64,000 bases of DNA from Acidimicrobiia bacterium (GTDB taxonomy: Bacteria > Actinomycetota > Acidimicrobiia > Spongiisociales > UBA5794): assembly GCA_030065575.1 (NCBI GenBank), contig JASJDZ010000024.1:1717-65716 (forward strand). Direction: 5' to 3'. The notes beneath the pieces are model-generated. The model had not been told where the DNA came from. It saw only the letters and a list, made by a program, of their open reading frames with translations, and did no database searches. Every line of letters starts with the position of its first letter. Positions within the stretch are counted from its first letter, which is position 1. A program made the translations under genes and the position numbers. Below, one piece after another: positions 3,182 through 41,857 of the stretch.

Positions 3182-3403
3182 GTGGCTAAAAAAGACGACG
3201 TAATCGAGGTAATTGGCACCGTCGTCGAGCCTCTTCCGAACGCAATGTTCAGGGTGAAGCTCGACAACGGTCACGAAGTGCTGTGCCATATCTCGGGAAA
3301 GATGCGGATGCACTACATCCGAATCCTCCCCGGGGACAAGGTACGCATCGAGATGTCGCCATACGACCTCGAGCGCGGCAGGATCATTTACAGGTACCGA
3401 TGA
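3182..3403 (+). CDS. infA: translation initiation factor IF-1
   Basis: 73 aa, GTG start; [56 protein letters not shown] is near-consensus IF-1. Confidence 0.97.
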
Positions 3404-3513
3404 AAGTCAAAGCATCCGTCAAAAAAAGGTGTGAGAAGTGCCAGGTCATCCGCCGGCACAGGCGCGTGTTGGTGATTTGCTCCAACCCGCGTTGCAAGCA
3501 GCGTCAGGGGTAA
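3400..3513 (+). CDS. rpmJ: 50S ribosomal protein L36
   Basis: 37 aa [37 protein letters not shown]; ATGA overlap with the infA stop. Confidence 0.95.
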
Positions 3514-3517
3514 TTGA

Positions 3518-3895
3518 GTGGCTCGCATAGCAGGAACCGACCTTCCCAGAGACAAACGTGTTGAGATTGGCCTCACCTACATCTTTGGTGTCGGTCTCAC
3601 CACATCGCACATGATTCTCGATGATCTCAAGATCGATCGGGGTACAGCCGTGCGCGATCTCACCGACAGTGAAGTAGTCAAGATCCGCCAGTACATCGAT
3701 GCCAACCTGACCGTTGAGGGTGACCTCCGCCGCGAGGTCGCACAGAACATCAAGCGGAAGATCGAGATTGGCTCCTACCAGGGGTTCCGTCATCGTCGTG
3801 GTCTCCCGGTACGTGGGCAGCGCACCCACACCAATGCGCGCACTCGCAAAGGCAGGGCAGTTGCCATTGCGGGTAAGAAGAAGGTCACCAAGTAG
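3518..3895 (+). CDS. rpsM: 30S ribosomal protein S13
   Basis: 125 aa [25 protein letters not shown]...; conserved cluster position. Confidence 0.97.
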
Positions 3896-3913: not shown

Positions 3914-4303
3914 GTGGCGAAGCCCCAGCAACGCAGCCGGCGCAAGGTCAAGAGGAATATCTCCCACGGCCAGGCGCACATCAAGGCGAGTTTTAACAAC
4001 ACAATCATCACGATCACCGATCAAGAGGGTCGGGTCCAGGCTTGGACCTCCGGCGGCTCGGTCGGGTTCAAAGGTTCGCGGAAGTCGACACCATATGCCG
4101 CGCAGGTCGCTGCCGAGCAGGCTGCCCGCAAGGCAGGCGAAATGGGCATGCGCAAGCTCGACGTCATCGTTGCCGGCTCCGGCTCCGGTCGTGAAACCGC
4201 CATTCGCACCCTGCAGAACATGGGCATCGAGGTCACAGGAATCAGGGACGTAACCCCGATTCCGCACAACGGTTGTCGCCCCAAGAAGCGGAAGGGTCGT
4301 TAG
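3914..4303 (+). CDS. rpsK: 30S ribosomal protein S11
   Basis: 129 aa; [18 protein letters not shown]...[11 protein letters not shown] motif. Confidence 0.97.
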
Positions 4304-4305
4304 CC

Positions 4306-4911
4306 ATGGCTCGTTACACCGGACCTCGTACCAAGGTCAGCCGGCGCGCCCGGCAGCTTCTCGATGACAACAAGGCCAAGTACTTCGACCGTCGTCCCTA
4401 CCCACCGGGTGATCACGGACGTGGCCGCATTCGCGAGTCGCAATACCTCATCCAGCTGCGTGAGAAGCAGAAGCTGCGCCACATCTACGGCGTACTCGAG
4501 AAGCAGTTCCGCCGGTACTACAAAGAGGCGAACCGTCGTTCCGGCATCACCGGTACAAATCTGCTTCAGATCCTCGAGTCCCGCCTCGACAACGTCGTCT
4601 ACCGGGCCGGTTTTGCGCGAACCCGCCCCCAGGCCCGCCAGCTGGTCAACCACGGCCATTTCCGCGTCAATGGCAAGAAGGTGGACATCCCCTCGTATCA
4701 GGTGCGGGTCGGAGATGTTGTCACAATCAAAGAGCGCAGCAAAGAGACGTTCGCCGTTCAGCACGCCATCGATACCATCGACCGCTCCGCTCCGGAGTGG
4801 CTGGATGTGAACGTCGATAAGCGTGAGGCCGCCGTCACGGTGATGCCAAGCCGCGAACAGATCGATACAGAGATCAAAGAACAGCTAATCGTCGAGCTCT
4901 ACTCGAAGTAG
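4306..4911 (+). CDS. rpsD: 30S ribosomal protein S4
   Basis: MARYTGPRTKVSRR... start at ATG 4306; the ORF-track start 4273 would overlap rpsK. Confidence 0.95.
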   Translation: MARYTGPRTKVSRRARQLLDDNKAKYFDRRPYPPGDHGRGRIRESQYLIQLREKQKLRHIYGVLEKQFRRYYKEANRRSGITGTNLLQILESRLDNVVYRAGFARTRPQARQLVNHGHFRVNGKKVDIPSYQVRVGDVVTIKERSKETFAVQHAIDTIDRSAPEWLDVNVDKREAAVTVMPSREQIDTEIKEQLIVELYSK

Positions 4912-4938
4912 GCCCAAGCAGAGTCGGAGGAGCAGAGC

Positions 4939-5889
4939 GTGCTCATCGTCCAGCGTCCCCATATTGAAGAAGAGCAGGTCTCAGACAACCGATCACGGTT
5001 CGTCGTTGAGCCGCTCGAGCCCGGATTTGGTCACACGCTGGGGAATACCCTGCGTCGGGCTCTACTGGCTCGCATCCCCGGTGCCGCCGTCACCTCAGTG
5101 CGAATCGAGGGTGTCCACCATGAGTTCTCCACCATCGAAGGTGTTGTCGAGGACGTCGTTGATTTCATCCTGAATCTGAAGCGGGTGGTTCTCCGGATCG
5201 AGGCTGAGGGATCGCAGACGCTATACCTTTCGGCCAAGGGCGCCGGCGAGGTAACCGCAGGAGATCTGAAGGTTCCTGCCGGTGTTGAGATCGTGAACCC
5301 CGACCTTCACCTGGCCACACTTTCGGCCTCCGGTCAGCTCGAGGTCGAGCTCACCGCCGAGCGAGGTGTCGGCTATCGCAGTGCCGAGCGCAACTCTAAG
5401 AGCGACACCATCGGCGTAATCCCCATCGACTCCATCTTCTCCCCGGTGCGCAAGGTCGCCTTCCGGGTCGATGACACCCAGGTCGGGATGGTCACCAACT
5501 TCGACAAGCTAGTGATCGACGTCGAGACCGATGCTTCCCTCTCCCCGAGCGAAGCAGTGTCGTCAGCAGGCAAGACCCTTCGTGAGCTGCTCGGTTTGTT
5601 TGCCGACATGGACGAGGGTGAGGGCCTCGAGCTGGGCGACATCGTCACCGCCGAGTCCACCTCACCGGACCTCGACCTGCCGATTGAGGCGCTCGATCTC
5701 TCCGAGCGTCCCCGCAACTGCTTGCGTCGTGCCCAGATCCAGACGGTGGGTGAGTTGGTCGAGAAGACCGAGGAAGAACTGCTCAACATCACCAACTTCG
5801 GTCAGAAGAGCCTCGAAGAGGTCACCGCCAAGCTCGATGAGCTCGGTCTCTCGCTGACCCACGCCGGTGAGATTGTGGAGGGGGTCTGA
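4939..5889 (+). CDS. rpoA: DNA-directed RNA polymerase alpha subunit
   Basis: 316 aa; N-terminal [21 protein letters not shown] and C-terminal alpha-[23 protein letters not shown]. Confidence 0.97.
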
Positions 5890-11881: not shown

Positions 11882-11925
11882 TCTGGCGTACACAGCGACG
11901 ACATATTGGCGTCAGATCCGCCAAA
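11882..11925 (+). repeat. REP-like palindrome, family 1 (TCTGGCG...CGTCAGA), degenerate copy
   Basis: Outer stem TCTGGCG/CGTCAGA (one G-U on the + strand) with central CATAT; overlapping alternative hairpin TTGGCG/CGCCAA; downstream of glmM. Confidence 0.5.
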
Positions 11926-11977
11926 ACCGGGGGTTCGGTTAGGCTGTCGCCCACAACAGAACACCGACCGGAGATAA

Positions 11978-12125
11978 CCAGAAGCGCCAGCCCTCGCGGA
12001 ACTCAATTCCCTGAGGTGACGAGGTGGAGGGTGATCGATTAGTCGGCGGGTGCCCTCTCGGCCGTCCACGGCCGTGACGAAGCGGAAAAGCCCGGGAGCG
12101 ATCCCGGGGACAAAGCCGCTTCCAA
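11978..12125 (+). ncRNA. glmS ribozyme: glmS ribozyme (GlcN6P-dependent self-cleaving riboswitch)
   Basis: A|GCGCCAG cleavage-site core at 11983/11984; GUGACGAGGUGGAGGGUGAUCGAUUAGUCGGCGGGUGCC core; P3/P4 region GGCCG-UCCA-CGGCC ... CGAAGCGG-AAAAG-CCCGGG..CCCGGG-GACAAA-GCCGCUUCC. It matches the architecture and conserved stretches of Bacillus/Thermoanaerobacter glmS ribozymes as recalled from memory, and sits 55 nt upstream of glmS. Confidence 0.88.
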
Positions 12126-12179
12126 GTGGAGCAAGGTTCCTTGCAGCACACCTCCGGTCCAGCACCAGGAGGTTCCCGC

Positions 12180-23661: not shown

Positions 23662-24771
23662 ATGCGACGCGGTTTCCGAATCGGTTCGGTGCGGGGCATC
23701 GAGGTAATCGCCGATCTGTCGCTTCTGATCATTGCCGGTTTGCTCACCTGGTCGCTTTACGTCGATTTGGACGCCGCCTTCCCTTCCACCAGCTCAAATG
23801 CCCTGCTGATCGCGGCGCTTGTCGGTGGCGGATTGTTCTTCGGCAGTGTCTTCCTTCACGAGCTGAGCCATTCCCTGGTTGCGCTCCGCCGGGGGCTGCG
23901 AGTACGACGCATCCGGCTCTTCATCTTTGGCGGCGTGTCGGAGATCGAGGAGGAAGCGGAAACTCCGGGCGACGAACTAGCAGTGACGCTGGCGGGACCC
24001 GCGGCATCCATGGGTCTCGGCGTTCTGTTCATTGCGATTGGCTGGCCCCTGGCGTCCACTCTGGAGCTTCCGGCTCGGATCGCGTTGATCATCGGCGTTG
24101 CCAACGTGTCGATCGCCCTGTTCAACTTGCTTCCCGGATTGCCGCTTGACGGCGGGCGGATGCTGCGGGCGCTGCTCTGGCGGCGCAGCGGGGACCGCAG
24201 CCGCGGTACCCGCATTGCGGTCCGGACGGGCCGGGCCATGGGCGTTCTCCTGGGTCTGACCGGTATCGCTCTGGTCGCGGTACTCGGCAATTTCACAGCC
24301 ATCTGGTTCATTGCGGTGGGTTGGTTCCTGTACGAGGCGGCTTCGACTTCCGCCGTCCAGGAGCAGTTCATGTCCCGGATCGAGGGTCTTTCGGTGGCCG
24401 ATGTCATGCGCCGAACCGAGCTGGCCGTCGATGGTGACATGTCCGTCGGTGCTGCGCTGGAGATGCACGGGTGGGGCGACAAGCTGCGGTCCCTGCCGGT
24501 TGCGGTTGACGGCCGGGTGCTGGGAGTGCTCGGTACCCGCGAGGTGCGGCGAGTTGACGACACCTCTCGGCAGGGGACTCTGGTGCGGGATGCGATGACC
24601 CCCATCGGCCCTGGCGACGTGGTCGCCGCCGACACGCCGCTTCGTGAAGCGCTCGCGATGCGCGAGGGAGCAGCCGGCGTTCTCGTGGTCGTCGCAGAAG
24701 GCGAGGTTGCCGGGGTCCTCACCGCTGAAGAACTAGCGACCGTGTTTGGAGATCTACGGAGACGGCGCTAG
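23662..24771 (+). CDS. site-2 (M50) family metalloprotease with C-terminal CBS pair
   Basis: 369 aa; HELSHSL zinc motif in a TM helix; NLLPGLPLDGG; C-terminal CBS-like repeats. Confidence 0.85.
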   Translation: MRRGFRIGSVRGIEVIADLSLLIIAGLLTWSLYVDLDAAFPSTSSNALLIAALVGGGLFFGSVFLHELSHSLVALRRGLRVRRIRLFIFGGVSEIEEEAETPGDELAVTLAGPAASMGLGVLFIAIGWPLASTLELPARIALIIGVANVSIALFNLLPGLPLDGGRMLRALLWRRSGDRSRGTRIAVRTGRAMGVLLGLTGIALVAVLGNFTAIWFIAVGWFLYEAASTSAVQEQFMSRIEGLSVADVMRRTELAVDGDMSVGAALEMHGWGDKLRSLPVAVDGRVLGVLGTREVRRVDDTSRQGTLVRDAMTPIGPGDVVAADTPLREALAMREGAAGVLVVVAEGEVAGVLTAEELATVFGDLRRRR

Positions 24772-24846
24772 ATCTGAGCGTATAGGACTCAGATGTCCTG
24801 AACCGTTTCGGTTCACTTACTCTTGTGCTTTCGGTGTGAATTACCG

Positions 24847-24873
24847 CTAGCACTTGCCTGGGGAGAGTGCTAA
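24847..24873 (+). promoter_or_regulatory. CIRCE operator 1 (HrcA site)
   Basis: CTAGCACTT-N9-GAGTGCTAA versus the consensus TTAGCACTC-N9-GAGTGCTAA. Confidence 0.85.
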
Positions 24874-24876
24874 GCT

Positions 24877-24903
24877 CTAGCAGTCGAAAGATCAGACTGC
24901 TAA
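24877..24903 (+). promoter_or_regulatory. CIRCE-like operator 2 (variant with a swapped base pair)
   Basis: CTAGCAGTC-N9-GACTGCTAA; same geometry, C/G swapped symmetrically in both arms; centre lies 30 bp from operator 1. Confidence 0.7.
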
Positions 24904-24924
24904 CCCTCGGAAGGAGGAAGTCGG

Positions 24925-25212
24925 ATGAATCTCAAACCCCTGGGTGACCGGATCGTGGTCAAGCCCGAGGAAGAGGCCGAGTCGCGGACTGCCAGTGGAC
25001 TCGTGATTCCCGATACCGCCAAGGAAAAGCCCCAGTTGGGCAAGGTACTTGCGGTAGGCCCCGGCGAATTCAAGGACGGGGAGCGGATTCCGCTCGACGT
25101 CAGCGTCGGAGATGTTGTTTTCTACTCGAAGTACGGCGGCACCGAGGTCAAGGTTGAGGGTACTGATTACCTCATCCTCTCTGCCCGCGACGTACTCGCT
25201 GTTCTGGCCTAG
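24925..25212 (+). CDS. groES: co-chaperonin GroES
   Basis: 95 aa; [36 protein letters not shown]. Confidence 0.97.
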
Positions 25213-26868
<1,656 letters not shown>

Positions 26869-26900
26869 CACGGAGTTTCGGCGACTCCGTCGCCGAATCG

Positions 26901-27213
26901 TACCGATACGAGTTCGGGCCCCGATAGGGGCCCGAATCTCGTTGAGGCCACCCCCGCCGCTGGCGGCGGGGGAGCAGAGTGCGCGACATTGGCCTGCAAG
27001 GCAGGCGAGTCCTACCGATGCGATTTCGGGCCCCGAAAGGGGCTCCAAATCTTTGAGGCCACCCCCGCCGCTGGCGGCGGGGGAGCAGAGTGCGCGACAT
27101 TGCCTGCGACTTCGCCGATGCAATCCGAGAAGGCTCTGGAGCCTCGAAAGGGGCCCCGAACTCATGAGGCCCCCGCTGCCGCTTGCGGCAGGGGAGCCAA
27201 GTGCGCGGCATTG
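26901..27213 (+). repeat. three tandem two-hairpin units (periods about 112 and 100 nt) in the groEL 3' region
   Basis: Identical 49-mer at 26943-26991 and 27054-27102, plus a diverged third unit; each unit is hairpin 1 (GNRA-type loop), hairpin 2 (CUNG loop) and a conserved AGTGCGCG(A/G)CATTG tail. Confidence 0.9.
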
Positions 27214-27228
27214 CGACACGAAACCCGA

Positions 27229-27274
27229 GTCTGGCGTAGATAGCGGCGTAATAGCGCCGGACGCTACGCCAGAC
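27229..27274 (+). repeat. REP-like palindrome, family 1 (GTCTGGCGTAG...CTACGCCAGAC)
   Basis: Perfect 11-bp outer stem enclosing inner hairpin CGGCG-TAATAG-CGCCG; lies between convergent groEL and the GerMN gene. Confidence 0.8.
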
Positions 27275-27278
27275 GCGT

Positions 27279-28031
27279 CTAGCCCAGCTGGGCGCTCCAC
27301 TCGGCCCGGGTGATCGGGTCGCACTCCTCGGCGCCGATCTGCTGCCAAAAGGCGTCGCAGGAACCGTTCAGCCGGTACTCGACCGCGCTGATCGAGCTGA
27401 ACTGGAACACGTTGGCGTTGAGAGTCGACAGGAAGACCTGCGCACCCTCGATAGTTGCTACCCCGGGAGGCAGGATGTCGTTGCTGCCGAACTCGATGTA
27501 GGCCGTGCCGTCGACGATGCTGACGCCCTGGAACGAACCGTCGGCGCTTGCCGGCAACGGATTGCGGAAGCCGAGTTGCGTCTCTTCGAGGTCCAGCCCG
27601 GCAGTCATCTCCCGCATGGTCGTAGTGAGGACGAGATCTGTAGCCGGGACAACCCGGTAGACGTAGGTACCCCTGGCTAGATCCGTGCCACCACACGGGA
27701 AGAACACACGCAGCACAGTCGTGCCTTCGTTCTCCTCGGGAGGCTCTTCGAGGCAGACTGCGGGGATGGCGACCGCGGCTGTAGTGGTTGTCACCGTATC
27801 CTGGGTGACGTCCGATCCGTCCTCGCCGGATCCTGGTTCCTCGACAGTGGTCTCCGTCGGGGTTTCATCAGTGTCACCGGCGGCGGCAACCGGTGCCGTC
27901 GTACTCGGTGCTTGGGTGGCCCCCGGTGGCTCCAGCAGGTTCCGGAACGACGTGATCACAATCAGCGCCAGCACAACACTGACGGCTGCGGTCAGCCCGC
28001 GTTGGATCATCTGCAGTGTGCGTCGGTCCAT
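27279..28031 (-). CDS. GerMN-domain secreted/membrane-anchored protein
   Basis: 250 aa; N-terminal TM, T/P/E-rich linker, C-terminal region resembling GerMN domains (VFFPCGG...YVYRVVP...GVSIVDGTAYIEF). Confidence 0.55.
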   Translation of the reverse strand: MDRRTLQMIQRGLTAAVSVVLALIVITSFRNLLEPPGATQAPSTTAPVAAAGDTDETPTETTVEEPGSGEDGSDVTQDTVTTTTAAVAIPAVCLEEPPEENEGTTVLRVFFPCGGTDLARGTYVYRVVPATDLVLTTTMREMTAGLDLEETQLGFRNPLPASADGSFQGVSIVDGTAYIEFGSNDILPPGVATIEGAQVFLSTLNANVFQFSSISAVEYRLNGSCDAFWQQIGAEECDPITRAEWSAQLG

Positions 28032-28114
28032 ACCGGCACCCTAACGAGTGTTGCTCCAGATGAAACGCTTTGCGGACGCCCCTAGGTTCCCGCCCTGCCC
28101 GCGTCTGAGTGCAG

Positions 28115-28711
28115 TCAGACCCAGGCTTCGGCTTCGTAGCGGCGCCGTTCGTATCTCCACTCCCGATCAAGTAGGCCCCAGACCGTGTGGTCCAACCACT
28201 CGTGTCCCACCTTGACCTCATCGCGGAGGGTGCCTTCTTTCAGGAACCCGAGCTTCTGAACAATGCGCTCTGATGCCAAATTGCCTACGGCAATCCGGGT
28301 GACTACCCGGTGCATTTTGAGCTCTTCGAAGGCAATCTGAAGTGCTCGCGCCGTGGCCTCAGTGCCAAACCCCTCGCCGGTCGCGTCGCTGCGAATCCAG
28401 TAGCCGACCTCGCCGATCGAGTTGACTCGTGACGTGAACCAGACCGAGACATTGCCGAGGTGATGGGCTTCGTCATCGAGTGCCCGAATGGCGAAATCGA
28501 AGGCACGCCCGCTTGCCCAGGCGCCGATCGAGTCCCGGACGAACTGGGCGGTAACGCTCCTCTGGTAGTTGACTGCCCAGGGGAGGTACTCGGCCAACTC
28601 GGGCAGAGATGCGCGCACCGCTTCGTGCACCGGTGTTGTGTCCTTGCGCCGAAATGGGCGAAGTACCAGGCGCGGTGAGTACCGCGGATCGTGACCAAGT
28701 AGCTGTGCCAT
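28115..28711 (-). CDS. GNAT family N-acetyltransferase (RimJ/RimL-like)
   Basis: 198 aa; LRPF...D......., GYW......G.G..TEA..A....AF....HR.......N..S......K.GF..EG motif order. Confidence 0.8.
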   Translation of the reverse strand: MAQLLGHDPRYSPRLVLRPFRRKDTTPVHEAVRASLPELAEYLPWAVNYQRSVTAQFVRDSIGAWASGRAFDFAIRALDDEAHHLGNVSVWFTSRVNSIGEVGYWIRSDATGEGFGTEATARALQIAFEELKMHRVVTRIAVGNLASERIVQKLGFLKEGTLRDEVKVGHEWLDHTVWGLLDREWRYERRRYEAEAWV

Positions 28712-41810: not shown

Positions 41811-41813
41811 GCG

Positions 41814-41857
41814 TCTTGCGTAGCGTGCGGCGTAATGGCGCCGGTATCTACGCCAGA
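41814..41857 (+). repeat. REP-like palindrome, family 1 (TCTTGCGTAG...CTACGCCAGA)
   Basis: Outer arms as in the 27229 copy; inner hairpin CGGCG-TAATGG-CGCCG. Confidence 0.75.

Follow-up and report, generated by a model that had tools for sequence, protein, structure and literature searches.

The element described here is a tandem array of hairpin-forming repeats directly behind the groEL gene in a stretch of 64 kb (the window) of contig JASJDZ010000024.1, which derives from an Acidimicrobiia metagenome genome. The genes upstream of it, groES (24925-25212, + strand, 95 aa) and groEL (25228-26868, + strand, 546 aa, stop codon TAA at 26866-26868), were taken from the list of open reading frames (ORFs). 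The orthologous genes of groES in relatives match Pfam Cpn10, and GroEL shares 84-98% identity with proteins from Acidimicrobiia metagenome-assembled genomes that bear the name chaperonin GroEL; an exact look-up of the window's own GroEL returned no entry. About 50 nt 5' of groES a CIRCE (controlling inverted repeat of chaperone expression) operator was read in the sequence at 24847-24873 (+ strand). It has the form CTAGCACTT-N9-GAGTGCTAA and reads, with its spacer letters, CTAGCACTT-GCCTGGGGA-GAGTGCTAA; the CIRCE consensus is TTAGCACTC-N9-GAGTGCTAA. The position of this operator in front of groES marks the two genes as a heat-shock operon of the HrcA type that is read on the + strand. On the far side of the array the ORF list gives a convergent ORF of 250 aa with an N-terminal membrane anchor (27279-28031, - strand), and the intergenic region from the groEL stop to the stop of this ORF measures 410 nt. 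A Pfam search of the convergent ORF gave no match in the window and a weak Germane match for its orthologues. The gene order (M50 peptidase, groES, groEL, array, convergent hypothetical gene, GNAT acetyltransferase) is the same in several relatives.

Tandem Repeats Finder reported one array in this region, at 26894-27214, with a period of 111, 2.9 copies, 79% matches and a score of 357. No other array in the window has a period of more than 21 nt. The array corresponds to the triple tandem repeat that had been described in the initial annotation of this DNA. All units are direct, head-to-tail and on the + strand, with spacings of 112 and 113 nt. Units 1 and 2 have an exact run in common (26942-26991 = 27053-27102), as had been noted before, with the correction that its length is 50 and not 49 nt. 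The conserved tail AGTGCGCG(A/G)CATTG was likewise found as described: it occurs three times in the window with 0 mismatches, and in the array only. By motif match it lies at 26973-26991 in unit 1 (read in the sequence as AGCAGAGTGCGCGACATTG), at 27084-27102 in unit 2 and at 27195-27213 in unit 3 (AGCCAAGTGCGCGGCATTG).

In front of the tail each unit has positions for three hairpins, all given here on the + strand: a small stop-proximal hairpin (SH), a longer GC-rich hairpin (H1) and a second hairpin (H2). SH of unit 1, TTCGGCGAC-TCC-GTCGCCGAA (26877-26897), folds with -14.3 kcal/mol. It is one of two mutually exclusive hairpins 3' of the stop, CGGAGU/ACUCCG (26871-26889) and UUCGGCGAC/GUCGCCGAA (26877-26897), of which the second alone is kept in relatives. 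H1 of unit 1 (26908-26942) starts 40 nt 3' of the groEL stop and has an extended GC-rich stem with a GAUA loop (-29.8 kcal/mol, z -7.3), after which UUGAGG follows; it is a candidate intrinsic terminator and groESL 3'-end hairpin. H2 of unit 1, CCCCCGCCG-CTGG-CGGCGGGGG (26951-26972), has -22.7 kcal/mol. In unit 2 the alignment places at the SH position a perfect hairpin, GCCTGC-AAG-GCAGGC (26992-27006, -10.5 kcal/mol), the sequence of which is wholly different from that of SH in unit 1. H1 of unit 2 (27022-27051, -19.1 kcal/mol) has a GAAA loop and a stem with one G.U and one C.C, and is followed by UUUGAGG; H2 (27062-27083, -22.7 kcal/mol) has the same sequence as in unit 1. The SH position of unit 3 (27103-27120) is degenerate, with -2.7 kcal/mol and shuffles that are equally good. 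H1 of unit 3 (27137-27158, followed by AUGAGG) is a weakened chimera with a 5' arm of the type seen in the relative L010 and a 3' arm of the common type. Its stem contains one A.C and one G.U, and at -13.5 kcal/mol (z -0.7) shuffles fold as well. H2 of unit 3, CCC(G)CUGCCG-CUUG-CGGCAGGGG with outer pairs (27168-27198), has -22.8 kcal/mol and a z of -3.3.

The repeat and most of its hairpins are real and far beyond chance. The hairpins of the initial annotation stood where the small hairpin next to the groEL stop, H1 of units 1 and 2 and H2 of all units are concerned, whereas H1 of unit 3 turned out to be weak. Along units 1, 2 and 3 the energy of H1 declines from -29.8 over -19.1 to -13.5 kcal/mol and that of SH from -14.3 over -10.5 to -2.7 kcal/mol; H2 stays steady at -22.7, -22.7 and -22.8 kcal/mol. 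Such decay of H1 and SH in the downstream copies is what one would expect were the function to reside mostly in the copy next to the stop.

The 3' flanks of groEL in relatives were taken from the DNA around homologues with 86-98% identical GroEL; single relatives are denoted by L numbers. The same module was found directly 3' of the groEL stop in L005-8, L009, L010, L011, L012, L014 and L015-18, the GroEL proteins of which are 93-98% identical. Genomes that carry the module include the metagenome-assembled genomes GCA_029979685.1, GCA_029980125.1, GCA_947258985.1 and GCA_029979655.1 and the 2.8-Mb contig ERZ25039495 contig_34064. The module measures ~100-113 nt, begins with SH 8-10 nt past the stop codon and continues with a linker, a long GC-rich H1 that is extended by flanking pairs of the GAG/CTC type, a ..TGAGGCC linker, H2 and the tail. 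In the linker between SH and H1, which is mostly TACCGAT, CCGA is invariant. The tail in relatives is of the type GGAGCAGAG(T)(G/C)GCGAC, with the variants GTGCGCGAC, GTCGCGAC, GTTGCGAA and GACGCGAT, and a tail-related motif, GGAGCRGAG.CGCGA, was found inside the relatives' arrays only.

The copy number varies among these genomes. A single copy reduced to SH and H1 is present in L005-L008 (four identical assemblies) and in L015-L018, where it is followed by GTTTTCC and a palindrome resembling the repetitive extragenic palindromic (REP) elements. L010 has one copy of a variant 'type B', and L014 one copy with extra H2-like segments. Two copies were counted in L009, with a third SH, and in L011, where a REP palindrome follows; the window has three copies, and L012 has four together with fragments. 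Unit spacings are 101, 134 and 104 nt in L012 and 102 nt in L009 and L011. L013 (GroEL ~94% identical) has 0 copies. In place of the module one long, unrelated, perfect hairpin, TTTGGCGTCAGAAACCGGAAC-ATG-TTCCGGTTTCTGACGCCAAA, lies at 3645-3700 in this relative, and the downstream gene is another one, encoding DUF2171. The gene that comes next in L012 and L015 is another one, on the + strand, and the module is still present behind groEL. Because it is kept there despite the changed neighbour, the module goes with groEL and not with the convergent gene.

To examine conservation of the structure, a covariance model (R1) was built from SH, H1 and the linker between them. This model recovered 16 units at E <=4e-10 and, in addition, unit 3 of the window at 2.3e-05, all on the + strand and behind groEL. 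In an alignment of 15 units, to which the following values refer, standard pairs occupied 95.2% of the cells as compared with 80.8% in shuffles, and 0 of 500 shuffles reached 95.2%. Changes on both sides were seen in 9 of the 18 pairs of SH and H1. The covariation score was 0.403, against 0.126 in shuffles and at most 0.107 when the partners were slid by 1-3 columns, and pairing in H1 reached 98.7%. The alignment was guided by the covariance model, which favours structure; the hairpins are nonetheless plain by eye. SH alone had 5 of its 8 pairs altered on both sides in relatives, examples of its paired arms being TTCGGCGAC/GTCGCCGAA, GCCTGC/GCAGGC, GTTGCGATC/GATCGCAAC and CTCGGCAGC/GCTGCCGAG. 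These comparisons show SH and H1 to be kept by apparent compensatory change, and structure-preserving covariation in relatives is what the initial annotation had named as a check. The position of H2 is held by a perfect hairpin of 4-11 bp, for which at least 8 mutually unrelated sequences were found. Its arms across units and relatives include CCCCCGCCG, CCCC, CAGC, CCGCC, CCTGCCGC, CCTGTTCCCGC and TCGCCC, each with a perfect complement.

Comparison of single units indicates that they have probably been reshuffled by unequal recombination and exchange. Unit 3 of the window is a mosaic: its first 49 nt agree with L010's single unit in 43 of 45 positions, the middle agrees with units of L011 and L009 in 19 of 20, and its H2 and tail are nearest to those of window units 1 and 2. 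It had been proposed that unit 3 keeps both stems by a swap of the arms of H1. The mosaic identities and the poor folding of this H1 are at odds with such a swap; the stem is weakened because the recombination junction falls in the H1 loop. In L012, unit 1 has an H1 of the TTTGGGGCCC type, and units 2-4 have the TTCGGGCCCC type, as do window units 1 and 2. SH of unit 2 in the window replaces the GCCTGCGAC..GCCGCCGA junction that is present in L012 and at the window unit 2/unit 3 boundary. It perfectly copies its own left arm, which would be the signature expected from a template-switch mutation. Template switching is able to create hairpins and to maintain or repair them in one step (PMC8794818). 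Because such a switch rewrites the arms, some of the 'compensatory' change may be mutational and not selected.

Several features bear on the strand and on the end of the transcript. In all but one of the 15 units (14 of 15) the H1 loop has G as its first and A as its last letter (GAAA, GATA, GGAA, GAGTA, GGGTA and GAGAA, with AATC as the exception), and those of H2 in relatives are GGA, GAA, GAG, GTA, GCA and CCTG. The uniform GNRA and CUNG tetraloops of the initial annotation were not borne out, as the GAUA of unit 1 is not a GNRA loop, the loops of both hairpins vary in relatives and CUNG is not conserved. Folding of single units preferred the + strand in 12 of 15 cases, with a margin of only ~1-6 kcal/mol. 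In relatives with a single unit, U runs lie 3' of H1 (CUCGUUUUCCCC in L015, AUCUUUUGGG in L010 and CCUGUUCUUGCGUU in L005), so that H1 is followed by GUUUUCC, CUUUUGG and UGUUCUUGCGUU, respectively; these U-tracts are better than those of the window units. The G..A loops of H1, the U runs in single-unit relatives and the retention of the module in L012 and L015 would favour the groEL sense strand, the last because in these two genomes groEL alone can transcribe the module as a 3' untranslated region (3' UTR).

Copies of the module elsewhere and known identities were searched for. In 142 kb (the window and the flanks of the relatives) R1 detected the module at no site other than behind groEL, and with filters off on the window it still detected no further one. 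A hidden Markov model (HMM) of the full unit, run on ~135 kb, likewise gave matches in the groEL 3' region only. The intergenic region had no blastn match among plasmids and phages, and the unit-core pattern had none in viral contigs. The tail pattern GGAGC..AGTGCGCG.CATTG gave chance coding matches only in 185,579 GTDB species genomes and JGI metagenomes, a search that is too specific for the GTCGCGAC-type tails of relatives and says little. A MITE (miniature inverted-repeat transposable element) was rejected on the grounds that the unit ends are not inverted repeats and that target duplications, and dispersed copies in the DNA searched, are absent. A CRISPR array does not fit either, as the units are contiguous and homologous over their full length, with no unique spacers. 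In the tail and around H1 an operator like CIRCE or HAIR (HspR-associated inverted repeat) was considered; GAGTGC alone is shared with CIRCE, and the left half-site is absent 9 nt upstream. With Rfam, the window and 7 relatives gave no match in the region at the gathering threshold, the best sub-threshold hits (E >=0.18) being implausible, in agreement with the earlier remark that no RNA family could be named. No tRNA, tmRNA or tRNA-like gene was found in the region, and literature searches for repeats downstream of groEL or RNAs from the groEL 3' UTR yielded nothing specific. Elsewhere in the window a full-length glmS ribozyme was detected at 11972-12132 (+ strand; 101.5 bits, the gathering score being 37).

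Coding sequences and internal promoters were rejected as well. GGGGGAG-N4-GTG, which resembles a Shine-Dalgarno sequence followed by a start codon, occurs with the GTG at 26979 and at 27090 and opens frames of 25 and 26 codons (26979-27056 and 27090-27170) which run up to the conserved TGA of TGAGGCC in both cases. L012 has lost the start (GTCGC), L009 and L011 have no equivalent frame, and the spacings are not multiples of 3. A putative internal promoter, TTGGCC-N18-TACCGA, has a -10 element that misses the final T, and a promoter scan of 24500-28500 revealed no promoter-like site. A 934-codon open frame runs antisense to groES-groEL and crosses the array (24892-27696, - strand); such frames are usual in high-GC DNA and it was not taken as a gene.

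As the initial annotation had it, the array is adjoined by a REP-like palindrome at 27229-27274. This palindrome folds with -34.4 kcal/mol and closes the intergenic region, at a distance of 5 nt to the convergent ORF's stop. It contains GTAG and belongs to a dispersed family, GTCTGGCGTAG..CTACGCCAGAC, with a further copy in the window at 41813-41857 and a partial one at 11882-11900. A REP-like palindrome also lies behind the groEL module in L011 (3876-3912) and L015 (~3729-3768).

Tandem arrays are also present at the same place in more distant relatives. In L019 and L020 (GroEL 88%) the same intergenic region contains an array with a period of 108 and 2.2-2.6 copies (L019 3698-3935; L020 3842-4122, to the contig end). 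L022 and L023 (GroEL 86%) have arrays with periods of 65 and 19, at 3223-3402 and 3423-3468. The unit HMM detected no similarity between any of these and the window unit. Homology was rejected on this empty result, a single hairpin CACCC..CTGG..GGG being loosely alike. Folding of their + strand is more favourable than that of the minus strand by 20-27 kcal/mol and involves more G.U pairs. In the 135 kb examined, all arrays with a period of at least 65 nt lie behind groEL. Either tandem duplication has a hot spot at this site, or it is favourable to have repeated hairpins behind groEL. In L019 a transposase gene of the IS481 family (rve, HTH and LZ_Tnp_IS481 domains; 4013-5149) is inserted right behind the array.

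Taken as a whole, the array is most likely a tandemly duplicated terminator or 3'-UTR hairpin module that behaves as a variable-number tandem repeat (VNTR), rather than a new kind of RNA. More specifically, we favour, with moderate confidence, a locus-specific duplication of the groESL terminator or 3'-end module, variable in copy number, that would serve in serial termination and stabilization. Among the functions that had been put forward for the repeat, a stabilizer array in the 3' UTR fits best with a position behind the groEL stop, an association with groEL, compensatory change and the finding that it is not a dispersed element. Transcription from the CIRCE-controlled promoter would run through groEL, and the nascent RNA would fold SH and H1. 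H1 would then be an intrinsic terminator, suboptimal and poor in U, and would also hold up 3'-to-5' exonucleases, with SH and H2 as accessory hairpins. Polymerases that read through would meet the next copies and, last, the REP palindrome, so that the array may constitute a serial fail-safe terminator, an mRNA stabilizer and a shield for the convergent gene. Copies would be gained and lost by slipped-strand events or unequal recombination between units, and the extra copies are probably near neutral. The stems may be kept partly by selection, and template-switch mutations that rewrite both arms at once may contribute. Mycobacterial RNA polymerase requires a U-tract, and NusG helps at suboptimal terminators (PMC3993855). 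Because the actinobacterial polymerase needs a U-tract and NusG aids weak terminators, a series of weak terminators is plausible though unproven here.

A number of observations weigh against this interpretation. The U-tracts in the window (UUGAGG, UUUGAGG and AUGAGG) are poor, and by the mycobacterial standard termination would be weak. T after H1 was not significantly above A before H1 (3.9 vs 3.6 per 12 nt, p = 0.36), and a terminator scan called none inside the array. Tetraloops had initially been seen in the sense strand only and had been taken to argue for selection on an RNA structure. The whole array, however, folds equally well on either strand (-204.0 kcal/mol for +, -204.1 kcal/mol for -), and the modelled helices contain 5 G.U against 6 A.C cells, which picks no strand; together with the variable loops this leaves that argument weak. 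The decay gradient is absent in L009, L011 and L012. A plain terminator leaves the single-stranded UACCGAU, UGAGGCC and GGAGCAGAG and the well-kept H2 unexplained, and the copy numbers derive from short-read metagenome assemblies, with possible mis-estimates. Finally, we infer transcription through the array, termination or stabilization at H1 and a benefit of extra copies from the nucleotide sequence.

Part of this evidence would also fit a neutral minisatellite, arising at a mutational hot spot through high transcription, GC-rich hairpins and slippage, in which the first SH and H1 alone would be functional. The copy number that ranges from 0 to at least 4 among relatives with 93-98% identical GroEL, the decayed mosaic of unit 3 and the arrays of unrelated sequence that L019/L020 and L022/L023 have at this site are in line with it. 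So are the confinement of every long-period array in the 135 kb to the groEL 3' region and the SH of unit 2, a palindrome of the preceding GCCTGC as one template switch would yield (PMC8794818). It accounts poorly for the ~-22.7 kcal/mol of H2 in all three window units, for relatives that swap H2 for other perfect hairpins without decay and for the strong H1 stems that the inner copies of L009, L011 and L012 retain. Neutrality of this kind overlaps with the duplicated terminator module, from which it differs only in whether the extra copies add function, and we hold it to be a tentative possibility. That the module is instead a dedicated, selected groESL RNA device, a tunable stabilizer or decay element or a source of 3'-UTR RNAs, with the three unrelated arrays resulting from convergent selection and not from a hot spot, seems to us unlikely. 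A related proposal, in which each unit would give a trans-acting or otherwise dedicated structured RNA (a small RNA (sRNA) of ~100 nt or a protein binder, with UACCGAU or GGAGCAGAG as seed or site), draws on the single-stranded motifs conserved between covarying hairpins, on the G..A bias of the H1 loops on the groEL strand and on the established class of 3'-UTR-derived sRNAs (e.g. PMC7038943). The unit also matches far better on the + strand, though this is trivial for a non-palindromic unit. Nothing was found in support of the discrete sRNAs or the protein-binding array of the initial annotation. The promoter scan of the region was empty, the tail varies and Rfam gave no match; L005 and L015 lack H2 and tail and L013 lacks the whole module, which makes a function in trans dispensable. 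We consider this proposal quite improbable.

A mobile or dispersed repeat that landed behind groEL, such as a MITE, a REP-like cluster or a relative of the mycobacterial interspersed repetitive units (MIRUs), is suggested by the adjoining REP-like palindrome, which is a true member of a dispersed family, and by the IS481-family transposase after the array in L019. Period and copy-number variation resemble those of the MIRU-VNTR loci of mycobacteria. The head-to-tail units without terminal inverted repeats or target duplications, the spacings that are not multiples of 3 and the mini-ORF from GTG 26979, which is absent in L009, L011 and L012, do not conform to this. Neither do the searches, which gave no copy outside the groEL 3' region (142 kb with the covariance model, ~135 kb with the HMM), chance coding matches only for the tail pattern and no match in plasmids, phages and viral contigs. 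By these searches the array is not a fragment of a dispersed mobile element, which the initial annotation had named as a possible refutation, and we regard such an origin as very improbable. Equally remote, in our opinion, is an element that acts at the level of DNA, by cruciforms or as sites for DNA-binding proteins, for example at a site of replication-transcription conflict, and that has no RNA role. The stems are near-perfect palindromes, and the balance of G.U and A.C and the equal folding of both strands are as a DNA constraint would give. Such an element would leave the G..A bias of the H1 loops on one strand unaccounted for, and the position directly past the stop, with U runs in single-unit relatives, fits the 3' end of a transcript. 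Moreover, a repeated non-hairpin sequence resembling an operator was not seen in the units, the tail having only the GAGTGC of CIRCE.

If the reading as a duplicated terminator or 3'-end module is true, the locus would provide a natural example of the evolution of a transcript end, in which, among the members of one narrow clade, a multi-hairpin module has multiplied, recombined and disappeared, and its stems have been rewritten with their pairing kept. It would be useful for the annotation of Acidimicrobiia genomes. It also calls for caution, as covariation in perfect palindromes is not proof of a functional RNA. The unrelated arrays behind groEL in three lineages, if due to selection and not to a hot spot, would suggest a hitherto undescribed way to tune chaperonin mRNA levels.

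Among known systems, enterobacterial REP sequences and the bacterial interspersed mosaic elements (BIMEs) that they form are clustered in 3' UTRs, where they stabilize the upstream mRNA; BIMEs are dispersed in hundreds of copies and contain REPs in alternating orientation. The array resembles them in its clustered, extragenic GC-rich palindromes between convergent genes, in its potential to block exonucleases and in the true REP-like palindrome that adjoins it. It is unlike them in that the unit was found behind groEL only, in the 142 kb and ~135 kb searched, and is repeated head-to-tail. Mycobacterial MIRUs occupy many loci and contain small ORFs coupled to the flanking genes. With MIRU-VNTR loci the array has in common that it is an actinobacterial intergenic tandem repeat in the range of ~50-110 bp, the copy number of which varies among close relatives; in contrast, the groEL unit is present at a single locus in the DNA searched, with a spacing that is not a multiple of 3. 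Like 3'-UTR-derived sRNAs such as NarS (PMC7038943), the module would be structured RNA that forms the 3' end of an mRNA and shares its terminator. Unlike these, it occurs in several tandem copies, most of the unit is absent from close relatives, and processing or a conserved seed is unsupported. In position and form the array also resembles tandem intrinsic terminators, including the U-poor ones of actinobacteria (PMC3993855): a GC-rich hairpin lies past the stop of a highly expressed operon, is repeated serially before a convergent gene and, in single-unit relatives, is followed by U runs. The window copies differ from intrinsic terminators in being devoid of a U-tract of 7-9 nt, and each unit contains, beyond what a terminator requires, conserved linkers and two more conserved hairpins. 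Unlike tandem intrinsic terminators, finally, the array is a recent tandem duplication with a variable copy number.

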